A DNA stretch of 62,137 nt, counting the filler, from Hausera hauseri (Eukaryota), in NCBI GenBank assembly GCA_046269625.1. It is 10 parts of 10 records of this genome, joined end to end, with 100 filler letters (N's around TTAATTAATTAA, not from the genome) between each part and the next. Parts side by side here need not be neighbours in the genome. Positions count along the whole stretch, not along the records: positions 16,502 to 22,783 come from JBJURY010117209.1; 9 more parts are not named here. The stretch is one strand, 5' to 3'. The notes under the pieces were generated by a model. It made no database searches. It was not told the DNA's origin and saw only the letters and a program-made list of their open reading frames with translations. Positions 20,054 to 21,098 of the stretch are shown one piece after another; within the stretch, counting starts at the first letter, position 1, and every line of letters begins with the position of its first letter. Position numbers and translations under genes: made by a program.

Positions 20054-21098
20054 TCAAACTGTTGCTGCATCATTTGCAATTGTTGAGTGAATAATGTTGT
20101 ATCTGTAGTTAAAGCACGTGGTTGCAGCCGCAATTGGGAGAGAATTATTAGCACGAATAATCTCAAAGGATTTGTCAGCCATTATGGCCAGTTTTTCGAT
20201 AGCTGTGGACTCGTCGACAACAGTGAGCAAGGCTCTGATTGAGGTAGGCAAAGATGACAAAAAATAACGGCGAATTAAATCCGCGTTATTCGTAGGCGTT
20301 ACTCCTAAAGCGCTAAGCTGCAGAATGGCAGTTTGGAGAAAGTCGGATGGCTTTTGATTTCCTATCGCGTAGTCGTTAAAATACTTTTGTATTATATTGT
20401 CAATCGTAGGATCCGTGACATGCAGTACAGCTTCACAGTGTCTCGTAAGGTGTCGAGGATTGGAGCAGCTCGGAGATGTTACTAATCTGATGCTTGACGT
20501 TGGCAGGCAAAAGAATTAAGAGACTATTGGCTCGCACAAAAGAATCAGCGATATTGTTCGATTTTAGCTACTCTTGGTAGAATTGGAGCCATGGTTTGCT
20601 GCAGTTGTTTTTGTCAAGGAAAAATTCTACACGAGGTAAATTCAACGAAGCTCATGATTGTTGGGAGTGTGGCAAACGATAGACGTTGCTTGTATTTGTG
20701 GATTTATCATCCGAAAAGGATGGGTTTGGATCCGATCCACCCCTAAGGCGGAGGTGGAGTACCAGATGGATGACGGGACGTTCGTGGCATATGAAAAGCA
20801 AAATGGAGTCGGAAGGATGTATTATAAGCCCTTGATATGTGAAATAGAAATCAGAAGTATTGTATGATGAGGACAAAGCGTTATATAAAAGCTGTGCTCT
20901 ATTGTTGAGTGGAGCTCTTATGGTTTTTACGTGTTGATTATTGCTAAAAACCAGGAAAGAAAATTGTAATGAGGTGATCTCAGGGGAAAGATGAAATGCA
21001 TGGGGGGCTTGGGCAATTTCCTTCTGGGTTAAGGAGAGGTTCGGGCGTACAGCGCGGAAAGCAGTGGCAAATGATGATTGTGATAAAGGAATGTCCAA
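20054..21098 (-). pseudogene. Ubiquitin-like domain (…HLRLRGG) in frame with Gypsy Gag capsid region
   Basis: FYFTYQG...IHLVLHLRLRGG-SDP. The same frame continues past one TGA (20652) into LPRVEF...PWLQFYQE...LLPANV...STPYETL. Confidence 0.7.

Follow-up and report, generated by a model that had tools for sequence, protein, structure and literature searches.

A ubiquitin-like domain ending in RLxGG precedes Gag in a CsRn1-like Ty3/gypsy element and is a candidate host-cleaved pro-domain

The window, the 62,137-nucleotide stretch of DNA analysed here, consists of ten separate, unrelated records with N44-TTAATTAATTAA-N44 spacers between them; parts that flank a spacer are therefore not genomic neighbours. 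A ubiquitin-like domain (UBL) fused to Gag lies within one of these records (16502-22783), whose element is laid out on the minus strand as follows.

21328-21732, minus: piece of the host gene PSME4/PA200, C-terminal domain (Pfam PSME4_C, E 2e-15; residues 1679-1824 of the 1843 of human PSME4, E 6e-12)
20985-21327, minus: leader common to many copies, without an in-frame Met and with in-frame stops at 21236 and 21119
20736-20984, minus: ubiquitin-like (beta-grasp) domain with a modelled fold of about 78 aa (AF2, Foldseek, VIA, Atlas)
20736-20750, minus: RLRGG, with a predicted deubiquitinase cut after the second Gly; R, L, G and G are invariant in 8 of 8 aligned sequences
20631-20735, minus: Ser/Pro-rich linker of 35 aa (29-38 in relatives, by alignment with them), with a TGA at 20654-20652
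19919-20630, minus: DUF7041-like capsid and coiled region of Gag, interrupted by a TAG and two frame changes
19911-19858 and 19818-19765, minus: two tandem CHCC (CX2HX9CX3C) zinc knuckles, recognised in the sequence
19693-19702, minus: slippery heptamer A AAA AAC, then the Gag stop; predicted -1 frameshift into Pol
16963-19690, minus: Pol (protease, RT, RNase H, integrase ends), with several stops and frame changes
16879-16893, minus: polypurine tract, recognised in the sequence
16804-16878, minus: start of the 3' LTR, a 75-nt TGTAG...CTACA unit, recognised in the sequence

The UBL frame runs from stop to stop over 21116-20655 without any Met; FTYQG starts at 20843 and LRLRGG occupies 20753-20736. 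The TGA at 20654-20652 ends this frame, and Gag then continues in the same frame, such that the minus strand encodes, in this order, the UBL, RLRGG, the 35-residue linker and Gag. The original prediction of a UBL, LRLRGG and Gag in one frame interrupted by a TGA was thereby confirmed and placed on the minus strand, the prediction having named no strand. Its count of one TGA stood only in part: the TGA is present, but Gag is also broken by a TAG at 20570-20568, inside the interval that the prediction had assigned to the fusion (20560-21098), and by two frame changes, near 20436-20431 and 20117-20106. Across six frames of the whole 62-kb window, LRLRGG, RLRGG and LRGG occur once each.

The remaining parts of the record point to a decayed element with the Ty3/gypsy gene order (Gag, then PR-RT-RH-IN). 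A tblastn search with P0125, a related protein, matched the window Gag in three frames at 47%, 78% and 55% identity; DUF7041 matches were obtained in four relatives (E 5e-5 to 0.012, below the gathering score). The alignment to the Pol protein P0006 begins at 19690, in another frame than Gag. The integrase core (P0006 residues 731-1007) is absent near 17505 in the window copy and whole in P0005 and P0006. The 75-nt TGTAG...CTACA unit that follows the polypurine tract is either an LTR of very small size or the fixed head of one. No 5' copy of the LTR was found in the 6.3-kb record, where local alignment did no better than shuffles (78 and 29 of 100 reached the score), and the record may be truncated, or its 5' end may have been replaced. 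The expected place of the 5' LTR is occupied by the PSME4 piece, which is uninterrupted and ends 19 residues short of the PSME4 C-terminus. Contig depth over this piece was low (57-90); in run X1 it rose from about 75-85 there to 135 or more at 21322, the edge of the PSME4 match. No tRNA-Trp primer-binding site was found within two mismatches on the coding strand of the record, a decayed copy, and no family matched the ORF at 22076-22468 or the DNA beyond the 3' LTR start. The window copy is a dead, broken CsRn1-like Ty3/gypsy element.

In the other records there are decayed retroelements, whose products include F-type fusion proteins, a chromodomain and a RING finger; this content makes an invertebrate animal the probable host. 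Matches to Monjiviricetes-type fusion glycoproteins lie at 4826-5461 and 22840-24149, both on the plus strand; in the record starting at 22884 the fusion glycoprotein is upstream of RT on the same strand, which is the Env-before-Pol order of Burro-like elements (PMC6431247, excerpt). A partial chromodomain match (E 1e-4) lies at 8706-9326 on the plus strand. The RING finger (29229-29843, minus; Pfam E 1e-8) sits at one end of an 11.5-kb record that also has RT, integrase and a stretch resembling the F-type fusion gene found in other records, and is a possible ubiquitin-ligase domain carried by another retroelement. A protein-primed type B DNA polymerase, Polinton- or virus-like, is represented by a fragment at 41836-42300 (minus; Pfam DNA_pol_B_2, E 2e-8). 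Another decayed piece of Pol, from the wider lineage of the UBL-Gag element and about 49% identical to P0006, lies at 59086-61052 (minus), in a record without any Gag or UBL match.

To characterise the UBL, both sequence and structure were considered. Searches with the window UBL as a single sequence gave no Pfam and no PDB hit, and its single-sequence fold (pLDDT 51, no structural match at E 0.001) was discarded. AF2 on a five-row UBL alignment reached a pLDDT of 83, and Foldseek with this alignment-based model returned 307 matches at E 0.001 (best E 6.3e-6, TM 0.76), including ISG15, FAT10, SUMO and ubiquitin chains. Similarly, VIA gave Z 11.2 and rmsd 2.0 over 78 aligned residues. In Atlas, unnamed clusters came first for the window UBL, with a 100% ubiquitin-family cluster at 0.92; for the relative P0134, the named hits, at 0.79-0.84, were mostly beta-grasp families and serve as leads only. 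As judged from the alignment-based model, the window domain has the ubiquitin-like beta-grasp fold, the outcome for which the original prediction had proposed a Foldseek search.

Whether the fusion belongs to a family was assessed among proteins and among contigs. A capsid-only query found two proteins, P0125 and the chimera P0126. In P0125, the UBL, RLRGG, linker and Gag follow one another without a break, at 47% identity to the window. A HMMER search of 1.84 billion representatives returned five hits, of which P0127, P0128 and P0130 span UBL and capsid, while P0129 and P0131 were dropped since only 30-39 query residues matched; P0132, P0133 and P0134 were added from the clusters of the HMMER hits. 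In these seven natural relatives (P0125, P0127, P0132, P0128, P0130, P0133 and P0134; four sequence clusters), which are 25-46% identical to the window, no stop separates the UBL from the capsid; six of the seven were found through a UBL-containing query or the clusters of those hits, which favours UBL-bearing hits. P0126 was set aside: its first 170 residues form a DUF5777 domain of bacterial type, fused in frame to Gag's C-terminal half, probably a chimeric assembly, and it has neither the UBL nor the first half of the capsid. Because both are missing together, it is no test of the link between UBL and Gag.

The contigs of run X1 possibly include the window's own source and are hence not independent, and their summed depth was not taken as copy number. 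Of the 692 contigs covering 20540-21400, 559 are less than 95% alike, pointing to many diverged copies, and among those listed some span the Gly-Gly site and the junction of linker and capsid. In the TGA codon, 1382 of 1450 in summed depth (37 contigs), or 95%, carry another base. The original prediction had named two findings that would speak against it, a conserved TGA and a UBL missing from other copies. Both were looked for; the TGA is absent from the seven relatives and from 95% of X1 depth, and the UBL is present in 7 of 7 relatives that keep the N-terminal half of Gag. The likeness is also more than chance, as seven natural Gag proteins carry a homologue of the segment at the same position and the model of the segment is a ubiquitin fold.

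Further searches delimit the family. No related loci were found in the metagenome contigs or viral contigs scanned, and a word-based search with the window UBL read-through (TGA as X) gave 0 matches among 1260 candidates. Likewise, 0 of 11 DUF7041-annotated relatives had RLxGG in the first 300 residues or a match to the UBL profile; each of these has at most one exact CHCC match. In a tree of RT sequences, built from 33 of 120 listed RT hits and rooted on two distant outgroups (a root we do not trust), the window groups with P0004, P0005 and P0006, outside a 17-row group (99/99) that holds all named animal elements. P0125 and P0132 come from contigs of 8766 and 7611, the same sizes as those of the closest Pol proteins, P0004 and P0006; because these sizes agree, the Gag and Pol proteins probably belong to the same elements.

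Conservation is concentrated at the end of the UBL. In the untrimmed alignment of eight sequences, the only invariant UBL columns are G96, R123, L124, G126 and G127. In the trimmed alignment, 4 of 8 invariant columns fall within the last 5 of 83 positions (P 2e-4, computed on rows trimmed to end at GG). The tails read LHLRLRGG then S, LHFRLRGG then T, VHFRLCGG then S, ISSRLLGG then M, and V(T/A)TRLLGG then G. All eight sequences thus have an aliphatic residue (L, L, V, I, V) at P8, with Arg at P5, Leu at P4 and Gly-Gly, while the position directly before GG is variable (R, R, C, L, L). GG is followed by Ser, Thr, Met or Gly and in no case by Lys or Pro, and a variable, Ser/Pro-rich linker of 29-38 residues follows. 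The first Leu of LRLRGG is present in none of the seven relatives, and 299 of 338 in summed X1 depth (19 contigs) differ there non-synonymously. Among 12 listed X1 majority differences in the UBL, six are synonymous, including the one in the RLRGG codons. From the aligned sequences, the family motif is RLxGG and not LRLRGG. Since the tails vary outside RLxGG, this is the conserved signal; that the window copy resembles the ubiquitin hexamer is in part accidental.

The original prediction had read LRLRGG as the C-terminus of ubiquitin or ISG15. That identity did not hold: the window domain has no Pfam or PDB hit, its identity is at most 24% in the listed Foldseek alignments, the tail is xxRLxGG, and the best sequence match is the UBL of SDE2. 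Pfam PF13019 (Sde2_N_Ubi_yeast; gathering 26.4) matched P0125 (E 5.6e-4, 20.7 bits) and P0134 (E 0.11, 13.3 bits), with no match for the other three of the five rows, the window UBL included. The profile of the UBL alignment gave four PDB hits to E 10, among which the only UBL was C. elegans SDE2 (E 0.17). When searched alone against PDB, the P0125 UBL also gave SDE2 (E 1.8), and the P0134 UBL gave ISG15 (E 0.8), not SDE2. No SDE2 chain was among the listed Foldseek and VIA fold hits, and no FUBI or ubiquitin match arose in Pfam and PDB sequence searches with the element UBLs. These similarities lead us to lean towards SDE2 as the donor; the donor is uncertain because the SDE2 scores are sub-threshold, P0134 gives ISG15, and SDE2 is absent among the listed fold hits. 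Neither the window nor the relatives represent an SDE2 gene, because Ser, Thr, Met or Gly follows GG and Gag, rather than the C-terminal part of SDE2, comes next. PSME4 was rejected as a partner or source of the UBL, being out of frame and replaced by other genes in the relatives.

We consider it likely, with a probability of roughly 70%, that a host deubiquitinase cuts the UBL off after GG and that Gag then starts at a fixed residue. The original prediction's idea that host deubiquitinases may generate the N-terminus of Gag has gained support as a prediction. Gag, and Gag-Pol by -1 frameshift, would be made as a precursor, whose tail a USP-family enzyme of the USP5 type would recognise and cut after GG, as in SDE2. 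The new N-terminus (Ser, Thr, Met or Gly; neither the Lys of SDE2 nor Pro) would give a stable Gag: Ser, Thr, Met and Gly are not known as primary destabilising residues of the N-end rule, and Pro after the cut site hinders deubiquitinase cuts. The UBL was probably taken from the host SDE2 gene, with the downstream part of SDE2 replaced by Gag. We infer every step beyond the sequence and the predicted fold. SDE2 itself is cut after Gly-Gly by deubiquitinase activity (PMC5131917, excerpt), and the cut exposes a Lys that leads to N-end-rule decay (PMC6486553, excerpt). Human SDE2 is cut by USP5; in an alanine scan L70, R73 and GG were required and E71 and L74 helped, and the residues after GG were dispensable for the cut (PMC13572447, excerpt). 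The element keeps an SDE2-like spacing of the residues needed for the cut in 8 of 8 sequences; GG could be followed by any payload. In pestiviruses, inserted ubiquitin similarly acts as a host-cut processing signal (PMC8310069, excerpt).

Alternatively, the UBL may stay attached to Gag as an integral domain, without being cut, and bind ubiquitin readers or partners of the host while particles assemble. The cut after GG is, for the element, a prediction; uncut UBL domains occur in many proteins (PMC5131917, excerpt), and Burro elements have an internal Ubi2/SUMO-like domain (PMC6431247, excerpt). We nevertheless regard an uncut domain as improbable, given that conservation lies on the C-terminal RLxGG and not on the domain body (25-48% identity), and that the motif is followed by a Ser/Pro linker of variable length, as for an exposed cut site. 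A cut whose point is the released UBL, as a deubiquitinase decoy or a conjugated modifier, appears quite improbable. Conjugated modifiers such as ubiquitin generally keep Arg before GG, whereas the element varies at this residue and its domain body diverges fast; for the decoy role that the original prediction had raised, we found no positive sign. The cut would indeed leave a free GG end, and the cleaved SDE2 UBL binds a second USP5 site (PMC13572447, excerpt).

The element encodes an aspartic protease of its own, and this enzyme might cut at or near the RLxGG site. We hold this to be very unlikely, as a ubiquitin fold with an RLxGG tail would then be needless and retroviral-type proteases prefer hydrophobic residues at the cut. 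Equally doubtful is a UBL without any role, left as neutral scrap of a captured host mRNA or arising as a gene-calling artefact. Dead host-gene pieces do sit at the 5' end of such elements, and the relative P0126 is an evident chimera; yet the cargo changes from element to element, whereas the UBL is constant and in frame and its motif is conserved across 25-46% identity, and the window shows the fusion directly in DNA. The alignment of the window with its seven relatives largely refutes this explanation.

Different host genes lie at the same place upstream of the UBL: PSME4 in the window, CARM1 in P0125, and DIS3L plus CNOT1 in P0127 and P0132. In two clusters (CARM1; DIS3L plus CNOT1), the host-gene piece and the UBL are in one predicted protein, whereas the PSME4 piece of the window is out of frame with the UBL, with stops between them. 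The CARM1 piece of P0125 (E 4e-80) has altered motif positions (ISESMG for ISEPMG, GAGFG for GCGSG) and gaps of at most two residues; about 470 residues of damaged but unbroken CARM1 and spacer precede the UBL. P0127 and P0132 carry DIS3L, in register from its natural start, and CNOT1, and in P0132 about 620 residues of DIS3L, CNOT1 and spacer run into the UBL. P0128 and P0134 have 90-125 residues without a family match before the UBL. A stop-free spacer of 59-72 codons has a chance of about 1-2% each at 38% GC, before the requirement for the right frame; continuous frames, if real, would imply selection for an in-frame arrangement of cargo and UBL. In the known LTR-mediated retroposition of host mRNAs (PMC5131818, excerpt), intron-free-looking host pieces are joined to LTR-element sequence, sometimes from several genes or in frame; here, in contrast, the pieces lie upstream of an intact UBL-Gag, in two clusters within the same predicted protein.

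As host-gene pieces precede the UBL in the same predicted protein, the cut could insulate Gag from captured host sequence. The UBL would then be a host-cut insulator, by which the element loads pieces of host mRNA at its 5' end and still makes Gag: translation would start at the captured host AUG and run through the cargo, and the cut would release an identical Gag. This extension of the pro-domain reading is speculative and, on balance, rather unlikely, because P0125, P0127 and P0132 are known as proteins alone and may be spliced gene models, because the real start of P0125 and P0127 could be a Met that lies 92 and 97 residues ahead of the cut, because chimeras occur in the same source (P0126), and because the window's own cargo is out of frame. 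If it holds, the UBL is linked to an unusual capture of host genes at 5' ends, a processing signal of SDE2 type, borrowed by the element, would license gene capture, and with each capture a piece of host protein would be released that bears a free-GG UBL as a tag.

In the usual view, the Gag of an LTR retrotransposon is processed by the element's own protease. We found no report of a cleavable N-terminal UBL on a natural Gag in the literature searched, though subscription journals, Repbase reports and supplements could hold one. If host cleavage of the pro-domain is real, this lineage depends on a host deubiquitinase at its first step, and a parasite can borrow the SDE2-type “ubiquitin-fold activation” while changing the N-terminal residue.

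Close known elements are those of the CsRn1 clade (CsRn1, PwRn1 and AgCR; PMC2582038, excerpt), with which the element shares the CHCC knuckle, the DUF7041-like capsid, the PR-RT-RH-IN order, a Gag/Pol overlap by predicted -1 frameshift, a polypurine tract and TGT...ACA ends. It differs from them by its N-terminal UBL, by two CHCC knuckles (CX2HX9CX3C; present in the window and in six of the seven relatives, P0127 ending after the first) and in that no tRNA-Trp site was found in the window copy. Because the primer site was not found in this decayed copy, we call the element CsRn1-like and do not file it as a CsRn1 member. Burro/GYPSM1, the planarian giant gypsy, also carries a ubiquitin/SUMO-like domain in an LTR-retrotransposon polyprotein, but there the domain is internal, after Gag, in a polyprotein of 5,000 aa that also has Env and many accessory domains, and no GG cut site is reported in the excerpt of PMC6431247. 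The UBL described here is N-terminal, single and RLxGG-ended, in a small env-less element. Membership in Burro/GYPSM1 was rejected on the small Gag with separate Pol, the CHCC rather than CCHC knuckles and the lack of Env in the record.

Among cleaved fusions, FUBI-eS30 (FAU) and the ubiquitin-ribosomal proteins are made with a UBL that a deubiquitinase removes; these are host ribosomal genes, whereas the element UBL has no FUBI or ubiquitin sequence match. SDE2 (PMC5131917, PMC13572447 and PMC6486553, excerpts) shares with the element an N-terminal ubiquitin fold, an aliphatic-x-x-R-L-x-G-G end and a fused payload. The two differ in that the element's payload is Gag instead of the C-terminal part of SDE2 and SDE2 has Lys after GG; moreover, the match is sub-threshold and the element's cut predicted. 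The pestiviruses BVDV Osloss, CP1 and CP Rit (PMC8310069, excerpt) likewise have a host-derived ubiquitin-type unit that is host-cut and yields an exact N-terminus. Their insertions are recent and strain-specific, consist of true ubiquitin and stand before NS3 in an RNA virus, whereas the element's UBL is old, diverged, lineage-wide and non-ubiquitin, and stands before a retroelement capsid. By analogy, the UBL would at most work like SDE2, FUBI-eS30 and the pestiviral ubiquitin insertions, and is a member of none of them; if the proposed cleavage takes place, the element provides a natural, long-conserved counterpart of the sporadic insertions of ubiquitin in pestiviruses.
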